A DNA stretch of 64,000 nucleotides from Patescibacteria group bacterium. Lineage in GTDB: Bacteria > Patescibacteriota > Minisyncoccia > Minisyncoccales > JAHCRE01. Positions 2,039 to 45,178 of this stretch are shown here, in pieces (the first letter of the stretch is position 1; the number at the start of each line of letters is the position of its first letter). A program made the position numbers and the translations under genes. Location of the stretch: the NCBI GenBank assembly GCA_020148025.1, contig JAHCRH010000001.1:12652-76651 (forward strand), given 5' to 3'. The notes beneath the pieces were generated by a model. That model was not told the DNA's origin, searched no databases, and worked only from the letters and a program-made list of their open reading frames with translations.

Positions 2039-3367
2039 ATGAATAATCTAATGAATAAAATTATCTCTCTTTGTAAAAGGCGGGGATTTGTTTTTCAATC
2101 GTCGGAAATTTATGGCGGCTTTAGTTCTTGTTATGATTTCGGACCCCTTGGAGTAGAAATGAAAAATAATATTAAGCGAGTTTGGTGGGATGAGATGATA
2201 AAGAATCATGAGAATATTGTTGGATTGGATGCGGCAATTTTAATGAAACCCGAGATTTGGAAGGCTTCAGGGCATTTAACCGCCGGCTTTGCTGATACTT
2301 TAGTCGAATGCAAGTCCTGCCACAAGAGATATAGAGCTGATGAGGTAGATAGTAAAGTTTGCCCAGAATGTGGGGGGGAATTAACCAAACCAAGAAAGTT
2401 TAATTTAATGATGAAAACTTTTGTTGGACCAGTTGAAGAAGACGCCGCAACAACTTATTTAAGAGCCGAGACCTGTCAAGGGATCTATGTTAATTTTGAA
2501 AATGTTTTAAATTCAATGAGGCTGAAAATCCCTTTTGGAATCGCCCAAATTGGAAAATCCTTTAGAAATGAAATCACCCCAAAAGATTTTATTTTTCGAA
2601 CCCGAGAATTCGAACAAATGGAGATGCAATGGTTCTGCCATCCAAAAACGGCAGCAAAATATTTTAATTATTGGATAAAAGAAAGATTGAATTGGTATTT
2701 AAATTTGGGGATTAAAAAAGAAAATTTGAGAATAAAAGAACATAAAAAAGAGGAACTTCCCCATTACGCCAAAGCCGGAACTGATATTGAATACCATTTC
2801 CCCTTCGGCTGGAGAGAGATCGAAGGAATTCATAACCGGGGTGATTGGGATTTATCTAATCACGCCAAAAACAGCGGAAAAGATTTAAGTTATTATAATG
2901 AGGAAACTAAAGAAAAATACATTCCTTATATTATTGAGACTTCAGGTGGAGTTGATAGAAGTTTTTTTGTCTTCTTAATTGATGCCTATCAAGAGATAAA
3001 AGGGGGTAGAACTGAAACAACAAAAGCGGCGAAGGAAATAGAAATTTTACTTAAGCTTGACAAGAAATTAACTCCAATTAAAGTTGCGGTACTACCATTG
3101 GTTAGAAATAAACCAAACATAGTAAAAAAAGCTAAGGAGGTTTACGAAATGTTAAAACCTCATTTTATGTGCCAATACGATGAATTAGGTTCAATTGGTA
3201 GAAGATATCGAAGACAAGACGAGATTGCAACTATATATGCCGTAACCATTGATTTTGAAACTTTGGAAAAAGAAGATGTCACCATTAGAGATCGCGACAC
3301 AATGAAACAGGAAAGAGTAAAAATTAAAGATTTGATTAGTGTTTTAAAAGAAAAATTAGGGTTCTAA
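2039..3367 (+). CDS. glyQS: glycine--tRNA ligase (dimeric GlyQS type)
   Basis: 442 aa; N-terminus 'RRGFVFQSSEIYGG...YDFGPLG', class II aaRS core and anticodon-binding C-terminal domain. Confidence 0.9.
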   Translation: MNNLMNKIISLCKRRGFVFQSSEIYGGFSSCYDFGPLGVEMKNNIKRVWWDEMIKNHENIVGLDAAILMKPEIWKASGHLTAGFADTLVECKSCHKRYRADEVDSKVCPECGGELTKPRKFNLMMKTFVGPVEEDAATTYLRAETCQGIYVNFENVLNSMRLKIPFGIAQIGKSFRNEITPKDFIFRTREFEQMEMQWFCHPKTAAKYFNYWIKERLNWYLNLGIKKENLRIKEHKKEELPHYAKAGTDIEYHFPFGWREIEGIHNRGDWDLSNHAKNSGKDLSYYNEETKEKYIPYIIETSGGVDRSFFVFLIDAYQEIKGGRTETTKAAKEIEILLKLDKKLTPIKVAVLPLVRNKPNIVKKAKEVYEMLKPHFMCQYDELGSIGRRYRRQDEIATIYAVTIDFETLEKEDVTIRDRDTMKQERVKIKDLISVLKEKLGF

Positions 3368-3383
3368 TTTGAATTTAAGTTAA

Positions 3384-3413
3384 AGCGAAAGTTCGAGTCC
3401 TACCGCCGGAGCA
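3384..3413 (+). other. tRNA 3'-end fragment (T-loop 'GTTCGAGTCC' plus acceptor-like 'CGCCGGAG'), no upstream tRNA body
   Basis: sequence 'gttcgagtcctaccgccggagca' immediately after the glyQS stop; upstream is AT-rich coding sequence with no cloverleaf. Confidence 0.3.
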
Positions 3414-3442
3414 ATTATATAATGTCATTATAGAATTCAAAT

Positions 3443-3478
3443 AATCGCCTTTTGGGCGGTTTTTTGGTAGAATAGAAT
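3443..3478 (+). promoter_or_regulatory. R2 module: short hairpin plus T-run followed by TGnTAGAAT extended -10 (terminator-promoter unit)
   Basis: 'aatcgccttttgggcggttttttggtagaat'; same module recurs at 4861-4893 and 5833-5865. Confidence 0.4.
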
Positions 3479-3516
3479 GAGAGTCGGCATAATTTGATAA
3501 CAAAAATATAATTACT

Positions 3517-3678
3517 ATGAAGAACCAAAAAATAGTAGGAATTTTATTGGCGTTAACAGGAGCCTTCTTAATGTGGAATGGTAGTATTTTGGGAGAAAAT
3601 ACTACAGGTATTGCAACTATCATAGGTATTGTCGGGTTGATCTTAATAGCTACATCACGGAAAGCCAAAAAATTCTAA
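3517..3678 (+). CDS. small membrane protein (53 aa, one TM helix)
   Basis: ATG about 3517 to TAA about 3676-3678; 'MKNQKIVGILLALTGAFLMWNG...IGIVGLILIATSRKAKKF'; preferred over the antisense track ORF 3375..3668. Confidence 0.4.
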   Translation: MKNQKIVGILLALTGAFLMWNGSILGENTTGIATIIGIVGLILIATSRKAKKF

Positions 3679-3713
3679 ATCAACAAATTATTAACAGGCA
3701 GCTGCTACTAAAC

Positions 3714-3741
3714 AGGTTCTAACATCGTCCCATCTGGGGAG
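3714..3741 (+). repeat. R1 motif copy 1 (AGGTTCTAACATCGTCC...GGGGAGC)
   Basis: 'aggttctaacatcgtcccatctggggagc', directly followed by TATAAT and a small ORF. Confidence 0.6.
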
Positions 3742-3763
3742 CAAATAGTGTATAATTATATCT

Positions 3764-3883
3764 ATGGCAAAAAGAAGAAAAGGAATAGGAAAGAGAAAGA
3801 AGTCTCATTCAAAAAAGACCAAAAAACGGCTTGCGATAAAGCGTGAAATGTTGGCAAAAAGGGACAGCAAACGGCGCAAGTAG
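3764..3883 (+). CDS. very basic 39-aa peptide (Lys/Arg-rich)
   Basis: 'MAKRRKGIGKRKKSHSKKTKKRLAIKREMLAKRDSKRRK'; TATAAT 8 nt upstream; below the ORF-track size cutoff. Confidence 0.3.
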   Translation: MAKRRKGIGKRKKSHSKKTKKRLAIKREMLAKRDSKRRK

Positions 3884-3920
3884 ATCTATTTTTCTATGTA
3901 ACCAGAATGTGCCTGAAAAT

Positions 3921-3980
3921 AGGTTCTAACATCGTCCACTACTTACAAAAAAGGTTCGAAGACTGTTAAGGGTGGGGAGC
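3921..3980 (+). repeat. R1 motif copy 2 (carries a 36-nt internal insertion)
   Basis: 'aggttctaacatcgtcca...ggttcgaagactgttaagggtggggagc'. Confidence 0.55.
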
Positions 3981-3996
3981 TTTTTTATTTCCGCCC

Positions 3997-4017
3997 GCCC
4001 CGAGAGTTTTTCTCGGG
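3997..4017 (+). repeat. R3 hairpin 'CCCCGAGAGTTTTTCTCGGGG'; part of the left 40-bp direct repeat flanking the ncRNA unit
   Basis: left direct repeat 3978-4020, matching 4329-4372 at about 38 of 42 positions. Confidence 0.6.
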
Positions 4018-4042
4018 GTTTTGAATTTATACCCATAAACCC

Positions 4043-4070
4043 TTGACAAGTTCTGTGGGTTTGCTATAAT
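4043..4070 (+). promoter_or_regulatory. near-consensus sigma70-type promoter TTGACA-16-TATAAT
   Basis: 'ttgacaagttctgtgggtttgctataat'. Confidence 0.6.
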
Positions 4071-4077
4071 AGAGGCG

Positions 4078-4337
4078 TATAGGGTAAAAGCTCTGTACCG
4101 AAAGGACCATTCGGACACAGGACGGATAGTCTTGGGTAATTTAAAAGGCTTACTTATTGAAAGCGAGTACTTCTGGAAAAGATTCCAATGAATTCTTCCA
4201 CGGGGGAGCCTGTGCTCCTATGTGGAAAATGGGTTCAGAGAAGACGTACAGAAGTACAGATGAACAAGTAGGTAGGATAAGCCTCTTTTTTACTCACATG
4301 GGGTGCGTCACTAAGATTCACCCCTTACTCTTTTTTA
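4078..4337 (+). ncRNA. candidate structured small RNA of about 260 nt, family not identified
   Basis: consensus promoter upstream; internal hairpins (ccgaa/ttcgg, ggagc/gctcc); ends in intrinsic terminator 'ggggtgcgtcactaagattcacccc' plus T-run; no convincing protein frame. Confidence 0.4.
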
Positions 4338-4347
4338 TTTCCGTCGC

Positions 4348-4368
4348 TCCGAGAGTTTTTCTCTCGGG
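4348..4368 (+). repeat. R3 hairpin copy 2 (right direct repeat of the ncRNA unit)
   Basis: 'ccgagagtttttctctcgg' within 4329-4372. Confidence 0.55.
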
Positions 4369-4400
4369 TTTCTTTGTATTACCCGATTAAGGAAACTAAA

Positions 4401-4434
4401 ACAAAAACCCCGCAAGAATTTTGCGGGGTTTGTT
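4401..4434. terminator. bidirectional intrinsic terminator
   Basis: 'aaaaccccgcaagaattttgcggggtttgtt': GC stem with an A-run and T-run on opposite sides. Confidence 0.6.
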
Positions 4435-4443
4435 CGTTCTGGA

Positions 4444-4623
4444 TTAGCGTTCGAATCTTCGAGTTCTTCGTTTAGCATGACAGTCTCTACAGTAAAGTGG
4501 TCTATCTCCCGATGGTTCAAATGGAAGTTCGGTTATTTCTTTTCCGCAATCAGAACATTTCCAATTTCCCTTGAACATCTTTCGAGGGAAATCTCTATTG
4601 GATTCAAATTTTTTGAAGGCCAT
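4444..4623 (-). CDS. small zinc-ribbon protein (59 aa, CxxC...CxxC)
   Basis: reverse-strand ORF 'MAFKKFESNRDFPRKMFKGNWKCSDCGKEITELPFEPSGDRPLYCRDCHAKRRTRRFER'; 60 codons counted; ends at the bidirectional terminator. Confidence 0.5.
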   Translation of the reverse strand: MAFKKFESNRDFPRKMFKGNWKCSDCGKEITELPFEPSGDRPLYCRDCHAKRRTRRFER

Positions 4624-4821
4624 AAATAAATGTTATTTAGTGATTAAAGGTAAAAAGCGACCTTTATGACTCTTAAGTCGCTCTACTTATTTAGGCCCCG
4701 TTAATTTTTTGAAATTACTAAAGACTTACTTTAAGATACCTCGACTTATAAATCTAAAATCATTATACTCCTTATTTTTAATAAGTCAAGTTGATGTATT
4801 GACCAAGTGGTTTTACTAACT

Positions 4822-4850
4822 AGTTTCTAACATCGTCCACCCAGGGGAGC
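4822..4850 (+). repeat. R1 motif copy 3
   Basis: 'agtttctaacatcgtccacccaggggagc', followed by the R2 module 4861-4893. Confidence 0.6.
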
Positions 4851-4935
4851 TCCGTTCAGAAAATCGCCAAGAAGGCGATTTTTTAGTAGAATGTTTTAAA
4901 GGTCATATAAAATAATTTATAAGCAACCAAAAAAT

Positions 4936-5160
4936 ATGAAAGATGAAACAAAAACAGCAATACTTACAGCTGTTCTCATGATAGGATTGATAATAATTTT
5001 TAAGAACGTAATATACAAACCACTGAATGTGGTGCCCTTATATTTAATTCCAGTGTTTCTTTATATTGGATACATAACAAGGAGAGTTGGTGCTAATCTT
5101 TGGATTGGTATGACTCTATTCATCACGTTGGCAATGGCTGTATTGCATGCTTTCTTTTAG
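4936..5160 (+). CDS. small membrane protein (74 aa, 2-3 TM helices)
   Basis: hydrophobic segments 'ILTAVLMIGLIIIF', 'LYLIPVFLYIGYI', 'LWIGMTLFITLAMAVL'. Confidence 0.5.
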   Translation: MKDETKTAILTAVLMIGLIIIFKNVIYKPLNVVPLYLIPVFLYIGYITRRVGANLWIGMTLFITLAMAVLHAFF

Positions 5161-5186
5161 AGTTTTTTTATTGTTTAGGTAAAAAA

Positions 5187-5687
5187 ATGCAGAGGAATAA
5201 CCTTTATGAAGAAAAGATATCCTCGAAGTGGTGGATGACGGGTATATTGACCGCTTTTACAGCTGGACTTCTTTTCGTATTGGTCTATCAAATTTTGGTA
5301 GGATCAATTGGTACTCGTCCTGCTCCAAACTTGTTTTTCCTACTTATGTTTCTATTGTTTTTAGGAGTGGTGATTAATTTTAGTAGGCTAAGCATTAGAA
5401 TAACTCACCTGTCTGTCAGGGTCAGTTATGGAATTTTTAAGCACACAATCCCCTGGGAGAATATTAAGAATTGTTATATAGACGAAGTTTCAACAATTAG
5501 ATATGGGGGTTGGGGCATACGCATAGGCAGAGTTAAGGGAAAATGTAGATTAGTGTATAATGTTATAGGAGCCCCTCGAGTTGTGCTTTCATTGAAGAAA
5601 GGTAAATTTAAAGAGTTTGTTTTTTCAACTGAAAAACCAAAAGAAGTAATGAATATAATCAGGCAACGGAGAGGTAGCGACTCTTGA
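5187..5687 (+). CDS. membrane protein with bacterial PH (bPH/DUF304-like) domain
   Basis: two N-terminal TM helices then 'YGIFKHTIPWENIKNCYIDE...RYGGWGIRIG'; start taken at internal ATG about 5187 of the track ORF 5100..5687. Confidence 0.5.
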   Translation: MQRNNLYEEKISSKWWMTGILTAFTAGLLFVLVYQILVGSIGTRPAPNLFFLLMFLLFLGVVINFSRLSIRITHLSVRVSYGIFKHTIPWENIKNCYIDEVSTIRYGGWGIRIGRVKGKCRLVYNVIGAPRVVLSLKKGKFKEFVFSTEKPKEVMNIIRQRRGSDS

Positions 5688-5798
5688 ATTAGCAGATCTC
5701 GGAATTTATAGAGATGATGACTGGTAAGTTGGGGTATAAGAACTAATGTTGATACTTAACTGAACCGACTCAATACTCGGTAAATTCTTCCAAAACCA

Positions 5799-5826
5799 AG
5801 TTCTAATATTGTACCATCCCTGGAGC
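5799..5826 (+). repeat. R1 motif copy 4 (diverged)
   Basis: 'aagttctaatattgtaccatccctggagc', followed by R2 at 5833-5865. Confidence 0.5.
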
Positions 5827-5875
5827 ACACAAAAATCGCCAAGAAGGCGGTTTTTTGGTAAAATAAAAATGTTTT

Positions 5876-6622
5876 ATGAAAGAAAGATATAAAAAACATG
5901 ATAAAAATAAAATGATTTGTTTCGATTTAGAAGGCGTATTAGTTAGTGGATTGGAGAAGGAGGGAGTTGTGATTCGTACAAATTCTTATACCTTGCTAAG
6001 TAAATTTTCTGGAAAAGAAAGTGAAAATCAAAGGTTATTAGAACAATTTTTAAAAGATAAAATCTCTCAAGAAAAATATGTATTAAATTCCGTAGCTTTA
6101 TGGAAAGGACTGCCAGTGGAAAAATTGAATGAAATTATTCCGTATCTTAGATTTACAACAAATGCAAAATTGGTTTGCGATTATTTAAGTCAACACGGAT
6201 ACAATCTCAGCACTATTTCCAACGGATTTTCTTTTATTACAAATTCTGTTGCAACCACATTAGGTTTAAAGTATGCTGTTTCCAATAAGCTGGAGGTCAA
6301 AAATAAAAAACTAACAGGTAGAATTGAATATGGACTAATTTTTAAGAACGAAAAGAAAGAAATAGAAAAAATTAACCCTCTTATAAAGAGCGGTTCTAAA
6401 GTTTACGCATTAAAATTACTTCTCAAAAAAGAGGAGCTAAACCCATCAAATGTTATTGTCTTCGGTGATTATCCAAATGATATAGAAATAATGAGATTTG
6501 TTAAAGATAGCCATGGAGTGGGCATCGCTTTTAATGCCGTCGAGCAAGTAAAGAAAATTGCAAGCCTATCTATAGACTCAAATGATTTAAAGATAATTTT
6601 AGAATATATAAAGCAATGGTGA
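5876..6622 (+). CDS. HAD-superfamily hydrolase (phosphoserine phosphatase-like)
   Basis: motif I 'ICFDLEGVL' (DxDx[TV]) and motif IV 'GDYPNDIEIM'. Confidence 0.7.
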   Translation: MKERYKKHDKNKMICFDLEGVLVSGLEKEGVVIRTNSYTLLSKFSGKESENQRLLEQFLKDKISQEKYVLNSVALWKGLPVEKLNEIIPYLRFTTNAKLVCDYLSQHGYNLSTISNGFSFITNSVATTLGLKYAVSNKLEVKNKKLTGRIEYGLIFKNEKKEIEKINPLIKSGSKVYALKLLLKKEELNPSNVIVFGDYPNDIEIMRFVKDSHGVGIAFNAVEQVKKIASLSIDSNDLKIILEYIKQW

Positions 6623-6714
6623 ATAGCGGGGTGGGGTAGATTAAATAGTTGCTAATACTTGTTTTATTTGCTGGAACATAATCTTAGGGCTATCAACAAA
6701 ATCCTCCCATCTCA

Positions 6715-6766
6715 AGGTTCTAAAATCGTCCGATAGACCGAGCCACTGCCCGAGAGTTTTTCTCGG
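6715..6766 (+). repeat. R1 motif copy 5 fused to R3 hairpin copy 3
   Basis: 'aggttctaaaatcgtccgatagaccgagccactgcccgagagtttttctcgg'. Confidence 0.5.
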
Positions 6767-6780
6767 ATAATCTATATATA

Positions 6781-6868
6781 AAAAAGGAGCTAAGCTCCTT
6801 TTTGTATAGCTTCTTTTTTGTTCCTGCTTATCCCCGCCGGGTCTTCGTCCGGCGGGCTTTGTTTTTTT
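6781..6868 (+). terminator. two consecutive intrinsic terminators
   Basis: 'ggagctaagctcc' plus T-run, then 'ccgccgggtcttcgtccggcgg' plus a T-run. Confidence 0.55.
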
Positions 6869-6897
6869 AAAAACTTTAAACTATAATTAAATAAACC

Positions 6898-8163
6898 ATG
6901 TTCAAAAAAACCATTCTAAAAAATGGTTTGCGGATTATTACTTTTCCTATGAAGAATACTCGAGCTTTGACTCTTTTGATTTTGGTGGCAACTGGCTCAA
7001 AATACGAAAAAAAAGAAAACAATGGAATTTCTCATTTATTAGAGCACATGGCCTTTAAAGGAACAAAAAAGAGACCCCAGACAATAGATATTGCCAAAGA
7101 ATTGGATAGGGTCGGTGGTCTTTATAATGCTTTCACTGGCAAAGAATCGATGGGATTTTGGGTAAAAGTTGGAGCAACTCATTTTGATTTAGCCACTGAT
7201 GTTTTGTCAGACATGGTTTTTAATTCTTTATTTAAAAAAGAAGAAATTGCAAAAGAAAAAAAAGTGATCTTCGAGGAAATCAATATGATGAAAGATAGTC
7301 CTTCAAGATATGTTTTAGAGCTGTGGGGAAAATTATTATATGGTGATCAGCCAGCTGGCTGGCCAATTGCAGGCGAAAAGAAAACAATTGAAAAAATTTC
7401 AAGAAAAGAAATTTTAGATTATTTTAAAAATCAATTTGGAGCAAAAAATATTGTGATTTCTTTAACTGGAAATTTTAAAGAAAAGAAAGCCATCTCAAAG
7501 ATTAAAAGTTTTTTCGGGCGCTTAAAAAAAATAAAACCTATTTTTAAAAAGCCAACAATTGAAATTCAAAAAAAACCTGAAGTTTTAATTAATTTTAAAG
7601 AAACTGATCAGGCTCATTTGTGTCTTGGAGTAAGAACTTTCGACATATTTCAACCAGAAAGATATCCTTTGGCTGTGATGTCTGTGATTTTGGGAGGGAT
7701 TATGAGCTCTCGGCTTTTTATAAAAGTTCGGGAAAAAAGAAGTTTGGCTTATTATATTAGAACATTCCCTCAACATTATACGGATACAGGTTTCCTGGTC
7801 ACTCATACAGGGATAGATAATAAAAGAGTTGAAGAGGCAATAAAGATTATTCTAAATGAATATAGTGATCTTAAAACAAAAAAAGTTTCCAAAAGAGAAC
7901 TTAAAAAAGCAAAAGAAAACATTAAAGGCCGTCTTTATTTAGGATTAGAAACTTCTGATGCCTGGGCAACTTTTTTGGGGAGTCAAGAAATTTTAAAAAA
8001 AGAAATTTCAACTCCTGTGAAAGAGTGTAAAAGAATTGATAAAGTTAGCCAAGCCGATGTTTTAAAGGTAGCAAAAAATCTTTTCCGGCCAGAAAAATTA
8101 AATTTAGCCTTAATTGGTCCATTTAAAGATAAAGAGAAATTTAAAAAACTATTAAGAATATGA
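6898..8163 (+). CDS. M16-family zinc peptidase (insulinase/pitrilysin-like)
   Basis: inverted zinc motif 'HLLEHMAFKGT' (HxxEH); about 420 aa two-domain fold. Confidence 0.85.
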   Translation: MFKKTILKNGLRIITFPMKNTRALTLLILVATGSKYEKKENNGISHLLEHMAFKGTKKRPQTIDIAKELDRVGGLYNAFTGKESMGFWVKVGATHFDLATDVLSDMVFNSLFKKEEIAKEKKVIFEEINMMKDSPSRYVLELWGKLLYGDQPAGWPIAGEKKTIEKISRKEILDYFKNQFGAKNIVISLTGNFKEKKAISKIKSFFGRLKKIKPIFKKPTIEIQKKPEVLINFKETDQAHLCLGVRTFDIFQPERYPLAVMSVILGGIMSSRLFIKVREKRSLAYYIRTFPQHYTDTGFLVTHTGIDNKRVEEAIKIILNEYSDLKTKKVSKRELKKAKENIKGRLYLGLETSDAWATFLGSQEILKKEISTPVKECKRIDKVSQADVLKVAKNLFRPEKLNLALIGPFKDKEKFKKLLRI

Positions 8164-9185
8164 ATCAGAACAGGCTCTTAGATATTTCTTGGGAGACAAT
8201 TTTTAAAATTCTTTTTGCTGTTATTTGCCTTTATTTTCTTTATTTAATTAGAAATGTTCTTATCTGGTTTATCTTTGCTGTAATAATTTCAGTCTTATTT
8301 GAACCCTTGATTGATTTTTTGACAAAACGGAAGATCCCCAGATTAATCTCGGTTGTTCTCATCTATTTTATTATTTTTGGATTAATTGCTCTTTCGATTT
8401 ATTTTACTGTTTCCATATTTACTTCTGAGATTCGTCAATTTACAAAAGTTTTGCCCCAATATTTTGAAAAAATTTCTCCACCCTTAAAAGCATTAGGTTT
8501 CAGGGCTTTTGAAAATATAGAAGAATTTATAGACTTATTAAGTAAAAATCTGGAAAGAATGGCTGACACCATTTTTAGTGCTATAGCTGCTATTTTTGGA
8601 GGAATTTTGGCAACTCTTTCAATTTTTTCGATTTCCCTCTTTCTTTCTTTAGAGGGAAAGCCAATCCAAAAAGCTCTGGGCCTTATTTTCCCCCAAAAAT
8701 ATGAAGCCTCTTTGCTAGATCTTTGGTCAAGATGTAAAATTAGAGTTTCCGGTTGGTTTCTATCAAGAATTTCTGGTTGTCTTTTTGTTGGAATTTCAAG
8801 CTTCGTTGCTTTTTCTCTTTTTAATACAAAATATCCTTTTTCATTGGGATTTTTAGCGGGTATTCTTAATTTCCTGCCAATAGTTGGGCCGATTATTACT
8901 GGAATTATCATTTTTATAATAGTTTCTTTAGATAATCTTTGGCAGGCAATTTTTGTATTAATCGTCTTTATCTTAATTCAGCAAATTGAGAATAATATCA
9001 TTTTGCCGGCCCTAACAAAAAAATTTGTTGGTTTGCCACCGGTTATAGTTTTATTAGCCTTAACAGTAGGAGGAATCTTATGGGGAATCTGGGGGGCAAT
9101 CTTGGCTATTCCATTTTTTGGAATTTTATTTGAATTTTTTAAAGAGTTTTTACAAAAGAAGAAAGAGAAAGCAGAAATTCTTTAA
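8160..9185 (+). CDS. AI-2E family transporter (PerM/UPF0118)
   Basis: multi-TM; conserved C-terminal 'LIQQIENNIILPALTKKFVGLPPV...GGILWGIWGAILAIP'. Confidence 0.85.
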   Translation: MNQNRLLDISWETIFKILFAVICLYFLYLIRNVLIWFIFAVIISVLFEPLIDFLTKRKIPRLISVVLIYFIIFGLIALSIYFTVSIFTSEIRQFTKVLPQYFEKISPPLKALGFRAFENIEEFIDLLSKNLERMADTIFSAIAAIFGGILATLSIFSISLFLSLEGKPIQKALGLIFPQKYEASLLDLWSRCKIRVSGWFLSRISGCLFVGISSFVAFSLFNTKYPFSLGFLAGILNFLPIVGPIITGIIIFIIVSLDNLWQAIFVLIVFILIQQIENNIILPALTKKFVGLPPVIVLLALTVGGILWGIWGAILAIPFFGILFEFFKEFLQKKKEKAEIL

Positions 9186-9332
9186 ATGGCTATTTTATAC
9201 ATCGTTGCAACTCCAATTGGGAATTTAGAGGATATTTCTGTAAGCGCCCTCCGAATTTTAAAGGAGGTTGATTTAATTTTATGTGAAGATACAGGGGTGA
9301 CAAAGAAATTGTTGGATCGCAATTTGAGATAA
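9186..9332 (+). pseudogene. rsmI: N-terminal 48-codon remnant of 16S rRNA 2'-O-methyltransferase RsmI
   Basis: '[48 protein letters not shown]' matches the RsmI N-terminus; the rest of the roughly 230-280 aa enzyme is absent. Confidence 0.55.
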
Positions 9333-9425
9333 TTTATTAAAAAAATTGATGAGGTGATAAAAAAAATCGAAAAAGAGAAAATAAAAGGAGAATTTGTAGT
9401 GATTATAAATAAATAAAATACATCA

Positions 9426-10958
9426 ATGAAAAAATTTTATGTAACCACAGCTATTGATTATGTGAATGCTCCTCCTCATTGCGGGCATGCTTTGGAGAAA
9501 ATTCAGACAGATGCGATAGCTCGTTATCATCGGCTTTTGGATGAGGAAGTTTTATTTTTGACTGGAACCGATGAAAATAGTCTCAAAAATGTTCAGGCAG
9601 CAAAGAAAGAAGGAATTCCTACAAAGAAATTGGTAGATAGAAACTCTAAGAAATTTTATGAATTGAAGAAAGTTCTGAATTTGTCTTTCGATGATTTCAT
9701 AAGAACCACTGAGGAACGCCATATTAAGGGGGCTCAAAAATTATGGTTAGCTTGCAAAAAGGATATTTATAAAAAAACTTATAGAGGGCTCTATTGTATA
9801 GGGTGTGAAGAATTTTACAAAGAGAGTGAGCTTGAAGATGGTCTTTGTCCTGAACACAAGACAAAACTCGAATTAGTAGAGGAGGAGAATTACTTTTTCC
9901 GACTTTCGAAACATCGAGATGAATTAGAAAAGATTATTAAAAACGATGAAATTAAAGTCACCCCCGAGTCAAGAAAAAACGAAATCCTTAGTTTTATCAA
10001 GTCGGGCTTGGAAGATATTTGTATTTCTCGCTCAGCAGAGCGGGCTCACGGATGGGGGATTGATGTTCCTGGAGATCCAACTCAAAAAATTTGGGTTTGG
10101 CTGGAGGCACTTTCAAATTATATCAATGGAGTGGAGTATGCTACTGATGAAAAAAAGTTTAAGAAATGGTGGCCGGCTGATTTACATGTAATCGGGAAAG
10201 GGATCTCCAGATTCCATTGTATATATTGGCCTGCATTTTTACTTTCGGCAAAATTACCCTTGCCAAAGAAAATTTTCGTCCACGGCTATTTAACTGTTGG
10301 TGGGCAAAAAATGTCAAAGAGTTTGGGAAATATTGTTGATCCGTTTGAATTAGTTGAAAAATATGGGACAGATAGCGTTCGATATTTTCTCTTGCGGGAA
10401 ATCCCTTCAGCTGAAGATGGTGACTTTACCTATGAGAAATTTGAAAAAAGATATAATTCAGATTTGGCAAAAGGTCTGGGAAATTTAGTAGCCAGAACCT
10501 TAACAATGGTTGAGAAATATTGTGATGGCAAAGTGCCTGAGATTGATAAAGATCCAGATAGTCATCCATTAAGAATTGATACAAAAATCCACAACTGGAA
10601 AAAGTCTTGGGCAGATGTAGATAAACACGTGCCGAATTTCCAATTCAATGAAGCACTTTCTTCGATCTGGAAATTCATCACTGAGGCCGATAGATATATC
10701 GAAGAAAATAGACCTTGGGATTTGGCAAAAGAGGGAAAAATCAAGGAATTGAATTGGATATTATATGGTTTGCTAAACGCCATTCATCAAATTGCCTGGC
10801 AAATTTATATTTTTATACCAGAAACTTCTGTAAAAATTGCCAAAGCTCTAAAATTAGAAAAATTATTGGTGAAAGACCCGAAGGAGAAAGATAGCTGGAC
10901 TAATATTAGACCAGGAACCGAGGTCAAAGAAATCAAACCATTGTTTCCTAAGGTATAA
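9426..10958 (+). CDS. metG: methionine--tRNA ligase
   Basis: HIGH-type 'NAPPHCGHALE', zinc knuckles 'CIGCEEF...CPEH', 'KMSKSLGN'. Confidence 0.9.
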   Translation: MKKFYVTTAIDYVNAPPHCGHALEKIQTDAIARYHRLLDEEVLFLTGTDENSLKNVQAAKKEGIPTKKLVDRNSKKFYELKKVLNLSFDDFIRTTEERHIKGAQKLWLACKKDIYKKTYRGLYCIGCEEFYKESELEDGLCPEHKTKLELVEEENYFFRLSKHRDELEKIIKNDEIKVTPESRKNEILSFIKSGLEDICISRSAERAHGWGIDVPGDPTQKIWVWLEALSNYINGVEYATDEKKFKKWWPADLHVIGKGISRFHCIYWPAFLLSAKLPLPKKIFVHGYLTVGGQKMSKSLGNIVDPFELVEKYGTDSVRYFLLREIPSAEDGDFTYEKFEKRYNSDLAKGLGNLVARTLTMVEKYCDGKVPEIDKDPDSHPLRIDTKIHNWKKSWADVDKHVPNFQFNEALSSIWKFITEADRYIEENRPWDLAKEGKIKELNWILYGLLNAIHQIAWQIYIFIPETSVKIAKALKLEKLLVKDPKEKDSWTNIRPGTEVKEIKPLFPKV

Positions 10959-44810: not shown

Positions 44811-45178
44811 TACAACCTAGGACTATGCTAAAAGTAGCTGATAATACTGGTGCTAAAATCGTTCAATGTTTTAGAGTTTTAGGTGGTACTCGTAAAAGAT
44901 ATGCCCGAATTGGTGATATTATTGTTGGCACTGTAAAAGAAGCTGAGCCGAGAAGACTGGTAAAAAAACACGATATTGTCAGGGCAGTAATAGTTCGTCA
45001 AAAAAAAGCTTATCGAAGATCTGACGGAAGTTATATTCGATTTGACGATAATGCCATCGTAATTTTAGAAGGGAAAACAAAAGACCCAAAAGGGGGGAGA
45101 ATCACTGGACCAGCGCCTAGAGAATTAAAAGAGAAAGGATTTGAAAAAATAGCGGGATTAGCTGAAGAATTAGTATAA
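44807..45178 (+). CDS. rplN: ribosomal protein L14
   Basis: '[17 protein letters not shown]'. Confidence 0.95.

Follow-up and report, generated by a model that had tools for sequence, protein, structure and literature searches.

A putative integron-like cassette array with a tRNA-Asn-derived boundary element in a Patescibacteria genome

A complete integron holds the gene of a tyrosine recombinase, intI, together with an attI site and a Pc promoter at the head of its array, and its cassettes are promoterless; its attC sites are imperfect palindromes of 57-141 nucleotides (nt) with the cores R'' (RYYYAAC) and R' (GTTRRRY). Genomic islands target tRNA 3' ends and show tandem accretion. Here we describe a region with likenesses to both. 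It lies in a 64,000-nt stretch (the window) of contig JAHCRH010000001.1 from a Patescibacteria group bacterium, between glyQS and the gene of an M16 peptidase, where positions 3391-6768 are an inserted array of five modular units. A unit starts with a terminator hairpin, which belongs to one of two recurring modules, R2 or R3, and continues with a promoter-like -10 box, its cargo and a ~35-nt element of the R1 family. The sequence-only reading from which this work started saw in the layout an array of independently promoted cassettes, possibly left by successive site-specific insertions. That interpretation has gained support: the region is inserted at a hot spot, R1 is bound to arrays and units recur elsewhere. 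We think it somewhat probable that this is an integron-like cassette array using a tRNA-Asn-derived site, with a recombination chemistry that we infer.

R1 arrays resemble integrons, and clusters of attC sites without an integrase (CALINs), in that their units are co-directional, mostly hold a single open reading frame (ORF), measure ~0.5-1.4 kb and each end in a site-like repeat. The cargo is diverse and largely unknown, the same unit occurs in different arrays, and many arrays have no nearby integrase. In contrast to attC, R1 is ~35 nt long, is conserved in sequence and is not an imperfect palindrome with R''/R' and L''/L' boxes. R1 units also carry their own terminator and predicted promoter instead of relying on a Pc, and the arrays are anchored at the 3' end of tRNA-Asn and not at an attI beside intI, with no IntI-like gene seen. 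R1 does contain TTCTAAC, one mismatch from the attC core RYYYAAC. An inverted partner (TTAGAACC, at most one mismatch) was found downstream of 14 of 167 R1 copies, compared with 8 of 167 upstream controls. We rejected an attC-like palindrome, in which the 5' end of R1 would pair with TAGAAT or TTAGAACC after the terminator, as a general feature: it occurs in a subset (contigs L183, L195, L127 and L133 in our numbering) and is not enriched overall. In L183 (2943-3030, 5294-5380 and 7863-7950) and L195 (9530-9620), tRNA-Asn or R1 is followed by a ~100-nt imperfect palindrome made of R1, a bidirectional terminator and an inverted tRNA-like end (ATACCCC..TAGGATTTAGAACC). Its shape is attC-like, but it is not general in the R1 family.

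Likenesses to tRNA-targeting islands are direct repeats that span the 3' part of a tRNA between T-loop and acceptor end, one array end occupied by an intact tRNA with orphan 3' fragments elsewhere, and content that at one site differs between close relatives. However, R1 units measure 0.2-1.4 kb and have no integrase, whereas islands usually exceed 5 kb and carry an integrase beside attL; R1 is a diverged, separately conserved form whose T-loop is longer by 5 nt; and the array of the window lies at a pseudo-site behind a protein gene, not a tRNA gene. No element-encoded integrase beside the attachment site was found by phmmer seeds or motif, a search of limited sensitivity.

Two further systems invite comparison. 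The pdif modules of Acinetobacter plasmids are bounded by 28-nt XerC/XerD sites in alternating orientation. Like R1 units, they are small gene modules bounded by short sites and shuffled without a module-borne recombinase; R1 differs in having no XerC/XerD-type dyad and in always keeping one orientation. Phage morons are promoter-gene-terminator units with no common boundary repeat. They share with R1 units an independent promoter-gene-terminator build between conserved neighbours, but R1 arrays have a boundary repeat and no phage context, and a phage or plasmid origin was rejected (0 IMG/VR matches, and none by blastn among phage and plasmid records).

An insertion hot spot behind glyQS

In the window, 3,530 nt separate the stop codon of glyQS (3367) from the start of the M16 peptidase gene (6898). 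The sequence-only reading had raised the question whether the two genes directly adjoin elsewhere, and in many relatives they do. We compared the 80 best relatives by glycyl-tRNA synthetase (GlyRS), which are Candidatus Nealsonbacteria-like metagenome-assembled genomes (MAGs) with 68-84% identity to the product of glyQS (2039-3367, plus strand); the window, too, comes from a bacterium of this kind. The gap is at most 60 nt, often with overlap, in 39 of the 65 relatives having both genes, 61-300 nt in 8 and larger in 18, and that of the window is the second largest when set against these 65. Identical gene content in relatives, which would speak against insertion, was not found: the nearest relative (L002, 84% GlyRS identity) has at the same junction a 3.9 kb insert with three unrelated genes, in which R1 was not found. 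On these three grounds, namely the near abutment in 39 relatives, the size of the window's gap and the unrelated genes of L002, we conclude that the glyQS-M16 region is an accessory island inserted at a hot spot.

The alignment of the window with L002 stops two codons ahead of the glyQS stop and resumes at a terminator hairpin (6833-6856), which together with a -10 box (TATAAT) forms the right border ahead of the M16 gene (6833-6897, plus strand). At the left junction L002 shows a decayed tRNA-like remnant (AAGTTCAAG..GGAACAATTA versus AAGTTCGAGTCCTACCGCCGGAGCAATTA), and at the right junction its terminator and -10 are the same as in the window. The last two codons and the stop of glyQS (GGG TTC TAA) are unlike those of relatives, and the gene reads its stop from the TAA of an R1-like GGTTCTAA. 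At neither junction of the window did we see a target-site duplication. We rejected a remnant of a local tRNA gene, there being no tRNA between glyQS and M16 in any relative, and also a foreign base composition, the GC content of the island (0.29-0.43) not setting it apart from its flanks.

R1 is found at this junction in other contigs as well. L192, a Nealsonbacteria-like contig, carries an independent R1 array with different genes directly before M16-AI2E-MetRS. The array terminates in R1, a module X (described below) and R2 immediately before M16, and the M16, AI-2E and MetRS sequences share 68-72% identity with their counterparts in L025. In L072, a solo R1-like element (AGGTTCTAACTTCCTTTTCCTTAAGAGCC) with a terminator (6999-7050) fills the glyQS-M16 gap of 86 nt and may represent an array at this hot spot that is empty or has collapsed. 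Upstream of the window array stand glyQS and a conserved 551-amino-acid (aa) protein. Further along the row, the gap between the AI-2E transporter gene and MetRS (9185-9426 in the window) ranges from ~20 nt to ~3.5 kb among relatives L002-L081 and may mark another place where this conserved row varies.

Within the window, R1 is confined to the island. With up to three mismatches allowed, the 16-mer core of R1 (GGTTCTAACATCGTCC) matches at 3715, 3922, 4823, 6716 and 44849, where 0.18 matches were expected for the whole search and none of 100 shuffles reached the observed five. The four island matches carry at most one mismatch; that at 44849 has three and looks like chance. A profile search based on the sequences of 115 copies detects six, all on the plus strand within 3707-6744, namely 3707-3744, 3916-3939 (5' half only), 4815-4851 and the divergent 3944-3981, 5790-5827 and 6714-6744. 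It finds none in the other 60 kb, including all other intergenic regions and 3' untranslated regions (UTRs). In 1.24 Mb around glyQS of the 80 relatives it gave nothing below E 0.08, the weak matches being confined to L011 (E 0.083) and L072 (E 0.13). R2 (3443, 4862 and 5834) and R3 (4000, 4349 and 6750) have three copies each, in the island only.

The recurring plus-strand R1 of the sequence-only reading is thus borne out, with two corrections. What had been taken for one copy at 3921 is the 5' half of R1 followed by a second, divergent R1, a composite that is also present in L083. R2 or R3 had been said to follow every copy, which is so except after the copy at 3714, where an extended -10 (TGTATAAT, 3749-3756) comes directly. 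The odd copies are not decay products: each type, R1b (5790), R1c (6714) and the 3915-3981 composite, recurs in several other contigs.

R1 arrays, tRNA-Asn and the exchange of units

An exact scan of JGI metagenomes for TTCTAACATCGTCC-N4-9-GGGAGC found at least 120 contigs with 148 sites in them, against an estimated chance expectation of a handful of matches. R1 arrays occur in many contigs of uncultured bacteria of the Parcubacteria or Candidate Phyla Radiation (CPR) type. The AAACAGG flank of R1 is conserved though it lies outside the scan pattern, and ~24 positions are more than 95% invariant, while the inner 5-nt block varies freely. A profile search of the array loci raises the number of copies to ~300, about one per gene, and the densest arrays have 12 copies in 7.9 kb (L186), 10 in 13 kb (L135) and 9 in 12 kb (L171). 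Of 74 multi-copy loci, 72 have all their copies on one strand.

R1 starts a median of 44 nt past the stop codon of a co-oriented ORF, and several such ORFs take their stop from the TAA inside R1; the median distance downstream to the start of the next ORF is 105 nt. Within 110 nt, 60 of 141 copies are followed by a strict terminator-like hairpin with a T-run, compared with 13 of 121 controls. Segments between R1 copies have a median length of 843 nt and hold a co-oriented ORF in 103 of 133 cases and an inverted one in 3. Read gene by gene, L186 runs ORF, R1, R2 or R3 hairpin, -35/-10, next ORF. In these figures the co-oriented geometry of integrons is matched, but R1 units carry terminator and -10 modules. 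The proteins flanking R1 are diverse (199 clusters from 233), with cargo families that include NUDIX, HAD, cold-shock, Dabb, methyltransferases and DegV. Since R1 stands at the 3' end of co-oriented genes, forms same-strand arrays and bounds homology blocks, it is neither promoter nor operator. The wider search for R1 that the sequence-only reading had suggested thus shows an element widespread in metagenome arrays, at gene 3' ends, and not the ubiquitous promoter that it had named as the outcome to fear. R1 apparently represents a broad, undescribed element family; a search of the literature library at hand gave nothing relevant on the R1 motif or on integrons and attC in CPR/Patescibacteria.

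Several variants of the R1 surroundings were seen. Module X (AGGCTAGTGAGnnnTTCGGGAGACCGAGnnnCTCA), a hairpin with a GAGA tetraloop, often lies between R1 and the terminator (L185:4880-5000; L082, L091, L100, L122, L153 and L192), and L185 contains a tandem duplication of a 55-nt unit in which X is joined to a tRNA-like end. A subclass of R1 (L127, L133, L166, L129, L114 and L201) reads AAACTAG-TTCTAACATCGTCC-ACGAY-GGGGAGC and is followed by GGGACGTTAGAAC and a T-run; there the 5' half of R1 is the 5' arm of a long terminator hairpin.

The tRNA-Asn(GTT) genes of array contigs end in GGTTCGAGTCCTACCCGGGGAGC or ...GTAGGTTCGAGTCCTACCCGGGGAGC, with U1-A72, G73 and no encoded CCA, and after them comes the R2- or R3-type terminator/promoter module that also comes after R1. 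Set against this 3' end, R1 reads AGGTTC, a T-loop longer by 5 nt (TAACATCG for GAG), TCC, 5 variable nt and GGGGAGC, and intermediate forms exist (GGTTCGAAAATCGTCC..., GGTTCGAGTCCAGTCCGGGGAGC). By this alignment, R1 is related to the 3' end of tRNA-Asn, and it is conserved as sequence. In the 120 loci ARAGORN called 17 tRNA genes, among them 6 for tRNA-Asn and 2 for tRNA-Gln(CTG), the latter with a similar 3' end. All six tRNA-Asn genes (L096, L097, L102, L124, L163 and L183) precede the array in the same orientation, at a distance of 0.5-2.4 kb to the first R1; in L162 another tRNA-Asn-like 3' end, picked out by regular expression only, lies ahead of R1. If about one in ~45 tRNA genes per genome is for Asn, the estimated probability of 6 in 17 is ~1e-6, for loci that are not fully independent, since L096, L097 and L124 share two large upstream ORFs (presumably dnaG and rpoD, as read from their translation starts only).

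Intact tRNA-Asn genes with R1-like repeats were seen in metagenome loci; the window has only an orphan 3' fragment behind glyQS. This tRNA 3' fragment, spotted in the sequence-only reading, is real: positions 3391-3412 on the plus strand (GTTCGAGTCCTACCGCCGGAGC) run from the T-loop through the acceptor 3' strand without a 5' part and fit the GTTCGA[AG]TCCTACC..GGAGC of tRNA-Asn genes in L097, L102, L124, L163 and L183, and no tRNA gene was called there. Orphan tRNA-Asn 3' fragments starting in the T-loop fill R1 slots in L082, L100, L185 and L195 as well. The window array therefore has the layout of the tRNA-anchored arrays, with an orphan fragment replacing the tRNA. The kinship of R1 to the tRNA-Asn end and the arrays that start beside tRNA-Asn strengthen the idea of successive site-specific insertions. 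The asn tDNAs are reported as classic island integration hot spots (for example PMC4891358), and tRNA gene fragments as known integration scars (PMC9897764).

Homology between array loci tends to break near R1. In an all-versus-all comparison that counted only breakpoints internal to both contigs, 30 of 78 homology starts and 28 of 86 ends fell within -20 to +60 nt of R1, compared with 5.9% at random. Single cases illustrate this. The unit at L135:11482-11951 recurs at 97% identity in L088 and L113, where its neighbours differ; L086, L171 and L179 have a common gene and R1 and diverge right after R1; and L112 and L159 are 99.5% identical for 3.3 kb up to a divergence after an R1-R2 module. L202, an NCBI Patescibacteria contig with nine R1-family matches on one strand (four at E < 0.002 and five weaker at E 0.025-0.45), shares with the window a pair of genes for a 74-aa and a 166-aa protein, at 93.7% nt identity over 813 nt. 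This homology starts exactly at R2 (4862 in the window), behind another R1 that is split, among neighbours unrelated to those in the window. In L180, homologues of the 166-aa gene and of another gene of the window, that of the 39-aa Lys/Arg-rich peptide KR39, stand in another order. The 166-aa protein has at least 206 homologues (55-87% identical) in Patescibacteria and in MAGs labelled Dehalococcoidia, Bacteroidales, ANME-1/Methanophagales, Methanocellales and Methanosarcinales, a spread that looks like recent cross-domain transfer. Among the copies fetched, no R1 was found near the non-CPR ones, including the archaeal.

Anatomy of the array in the window

Units in the window carry as cargo a small gene, a pair of small genes or a structured RNA with an inverted gene; all features named in this section lie on the plus strand unless stated otherwise, and promoters are predicted from consensus matches only. 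Unit 1 starts with an R2 module (3443-3473), recognized as a repeat and by terminator and promoter scans, that consists of a terminator hairpin, a T-run and an extended -10 (TGGTAGAAT); this module also follows R1 or tRNA-Asn in many contigs. Its cargo is a predicted 53-aa membrane protein without a Pfam match (3517-3678), and it ends in a canonical R1 (3707-3744; 41.3 bits, E 1.5e-10). Unit 2 is the exception to the plan, as it starts with only the extended -10 at 3749-3756 and no hairpin. It encodes KR39 (3764-3883), whose homologue in L180 (reverse strand, 1652-1786) is 69% identical at the nt level and sits behind a different upstream gene. Because of this homologue in another array, KR39 is probably a real conserved small gene and not a chance ORF. 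The unit closes with the composite R1 (3915-3981), made of a 5' half (3915-3939) and a divergent GGTTCGAAG-type R1 (3944-3981), as at L083:307.

Unit 3 begins with an R3 hairpin terminator (3997-4019), found as a repeat and by terminator scan, and a perfect predicted sigma-70-type promoter (4043-4070; TTGACA, 16 nt, TATAAT, with TG), which matches the consensus at 12 of 12 positions. A candidate structured non-coding RNA of ~270 nt follows (4076-4345). Its minimum free energy is -90.2 kcal/mol (z-score -5.08), and 0 of 200 shuffles were equally stable; neither an Rfam match nor, among the fetched loci, a homologue was found. A 77-aa ORF with a TTG start that overlaps it is probably spurious. 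The terminator of the candidate RNA gene (4331-4371) is a direct repeat of 3982-4022 (CTTTTTTATTTCC plus an R3-like hairpin). Beyond a bidirectional terminator (4405-4431), the minus strand encodes a 59-aa treble-clef zinc-finger protein (4444-4623; PF23477, E 3.2e-14) with a promoter-like site at 4789-4762 (11 of 12 consensus matches). The R1 that ends the unit (4815-4851; canonical with one mismatch, 34 bits, E 3.1e-8) is in array orientation despite this inverted neighbour.

Unit 4 opens with an R2 module (4857-4892; terminator plus TAGAAT), within which the homology to L202 begins, and carries the genes of the 74-aa membrane protein (4936-5160) and the 166-aa protein (5187-5687), its cargo spanning 4936-5687. 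It ends in the R1b subtype (5790-5827; AAGTTCTAATATTGTACCATCCCTGGAGC), which occurs in at least 12 contigs. Unit 5 consists of an R2 module (5831-5864; terminator plus TAAAAT), a HAD-family hydrolase gene (5876-6622; PF08282, PF12710 and PF00702) and the R1c subtype (6714-6744; CCCATCTCAAGGTTCTAAAATCGTCCGATAGACCGAGCC), also seen in L090, L170, L171, L180, L202 and L203. An R3 hairpin (6748-6768) follows this last R1. In the protein database the HAD protein gave only its self-match at E <= 1e-20, and HAD is a recurrent cassette family in R1 arrays. Pfam agrees with the HAD and M16 labels given in the sequence-only reading but lends no support, at E <= 0.01, to a bPH domain in the 166-aa protein; the minus-strand zinc-finger gene has to be added to the genes listed there.

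Recombination site, RNA element or portable repeat

R1 is near-identical across hosts whose core genes are 66-76% identical at the nt level, and its ~24 near-invariant positions therefore point to a partner that reads the sequence. A coding constraint was rejected, as the variable 5-mer alters an amino acid in every frame and stops lie upstream. Anchoring at tRNA-Asn, orphan fragments in R1 slots, homology breaks and the orientation kept beside an inverted gene favour a DNA recombination site. Recombination at the R1/tRNA-Asn-like site would then add, remove and reshuffle units, and the point of exchange would lie at the 3' end of that site (...GGAGC) or just beyond it. The enzyme would most likely be a sequence-specific recombinase whose gene lies in another part of the genome. 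The role of the integron attI would fall to tRNA-Asn or to a pseudo-site like the one behind glyQS, and that of attC to R1. Each unit brings its own terminator and predicted promoter, so it would be expressed independently wherever it lands.

Several observations weigh against a recombination site. Among 2,343 ORFs (from the window, 120 R1 loci, the relatives' loci and 7 extra loci), phmmer with XerD, Cre and gamma-delta resolvase seeds plus a catalytic-motif regular expression detected no recombinase of the tyrosine or serine type, in a search of limited sensitivity and without a positive control; for the window this agrees with the sequence-only reading, which had noted no integrase there. 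Neither an excision product nor an empty/filled pair differing by exactly one unit was seen. A position in the 3' UTR before a terminator fits a role as RNA equally well. Some homology boundaries lie inside genes: the match to L202 has its right end within the 166-aa gene, that to L180 its left end within the 74-aa gene, and the 27-29 substitutions between L001 and the window over 13.2 kb all fall within 5097-5640 (L001 131-674). This last tract covers the 3' end of the 74-aa gene and the 166-aa gene and records recombination between strains within a single unit. It follows from these boundaries that ordinary homologous recombination is at work here as well. Finally, linkage of the variable 5-mer to the upstream versus the downstream block is ambiguous (n=12), and crossover mapping on this basis was dropped for want of informative pairs.

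Of the alternatives, the one that survives best makes R1 an RNA, a 3'-UTR element descended from a tRNA 3' end and bound or cut by a conserved factor such as an RNase, a tRNA-end-recognising enzyme or an RNA-binding protein. It would set mRNA 3' ends, stability or termination efficiency, and the arrays would be independently transcribed accessory genes from ordinary transfer. The median distance of 44 nt from the stop codon and the excess of terminator-like hairpins after R1 agree with this. R1 can also be drawn as a possible hairpin, in which GGUUCU/GGAGCY closes an 8-nt bulge (AACAUCGU) and a CC/GG stem has a variable loop; 93.7% of its cells can pair, and its conserved G-U wobbles suit RNA better than DNA. 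Some copies have an extra hairpin between AAC and AUCG, or the GNRA-tetraloop module X after R1, as is typical of structured RNAs, and L183 and L195 carry the inverted tRNA-like element beyond a bidirectional terminator. However, the hairpin positions are nearly invariant, and the covariation analysis that the sequence-only reading had suggested for R1 found none (score 0.039, compared with 0.040 in shuffles), which speaks neither for nor against a hairpin; R1 is conserved as sequence. An RNA role would also leave unexplained why arrays start at tRNA-Asn, why orphan tRNA 3' fragments that cannot fold as tRNA occupy R1 slots and why homology breaks there. Behind the inverted zinc-finger gene, R1 at 4815 would be transcribed only as antisense read-through, and R1 is absent from the other 3' UTRs of the window. 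The 4,227 covariance models of Rfam, run on the island at gathering thresholds and at E <= 5 and on 20 array loci at gathering thresholds, gave nothing over R1, X or the candidate RNA; the only matches were a tRNA-Leu in the window and one tRNA in the 20 loci. We therefore regard an RNA role as unlikely. The preQ1-I, twister, boxA and T-loop motifs were compared with R1 by eye and dropped. A riboswitch or attenuator before the terminator was rejected because the downstream genes are unrelated (199 clusters from 233) and a promoter follows the terminator.

Somewhat less likely still, in our judgement, is exchange with no dedicated enzyme. R1, R2 and R3 would be portable homology, units would be swapped by natural transformation and RecA-type recombination between modules of 30-100 nt, and tRNA-Asn would be involved only as the ancestor, through its 3' end and downstream region, of the modules. 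All three modules are near-identical across the diverged hosts, breakpoints are scattered over R1 and the following module and not set at one base, tracts end inside genes and the recombinase search is empty, as would be expected. Yet neutral patches should decay, and R1 keeps its near-invariant positions beside a free 5-nt block; nor does homologous exchange require the strict single orientation or the anchoring at tRNA-Asn.

Repeats of the REP/BIME, BOX and Correia kinds are scattered chromosome-wide between core genes. R1 modules share with them a short mosaic build, a place at gene 3' ends, co-orientation with transcription and the supply of hairpins, terminators and promoters; they differ in being confined to accessory arrays and in moving with genes. 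That R1-R2/R3 are selfish miniature repeats of this kind, or of the miniature inverted-repeat transposable element (MITE) kind, inserted behind pre-existing genes so that only the punctuation is mobile, is improbable: the mosaic of R1, X, R2 and R3 with truncated and tandem forms, the long imperfect palindromes of a subset and the Correia-like supply of terminators and -10 boxes would suit it, but in the window the modules occur only inside a gene block that relatives lack (with 0 R1 in the 60 kb outside and two weak matches in the relatives' loci), neither a general inverted R1 partner nor MITE-type terminal inverted repeats were seen, the partner is not enriched downstream, and genes travel with the modules.

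We return to an array of cassettes that recombine at a tRNA-Asn-derived site and to what it would mean. The genomes of CPR/Patescibacteria are tiny and contain few mobile elements that can be recognised, and the question is how accessory genes reach them. A conserved boundary element of 35 nt would account for gene turnover at fixed hot spots and would serve as a sequence tag for the flexible gene pool of uncultured CPR. The R1 repeats also explain breaks in assemblies: ENA contig L001 starts at window position 4967, just after the R1/R2 repeat (4822-4890), so the assembly broke at the repeat. We tentatively suggest that CPR of the Parcubacteria type may possess a gene-capture system of their own, comparable to integrons but of a different build. 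Its primary docking site would be the tRNA-Asn 3' end or a copy thereof, like that behind glyQS, its mobile units would be of the build terminator-promoter-gene-35-nt site, and they would be inserted and excised by a recombinase, perhaps of a novel type, whose gene lies apart from the arrays. If this is true, streamlined, DNA-scavenging genomes would have a plug-and-play pool of accessory genes at their disposal.

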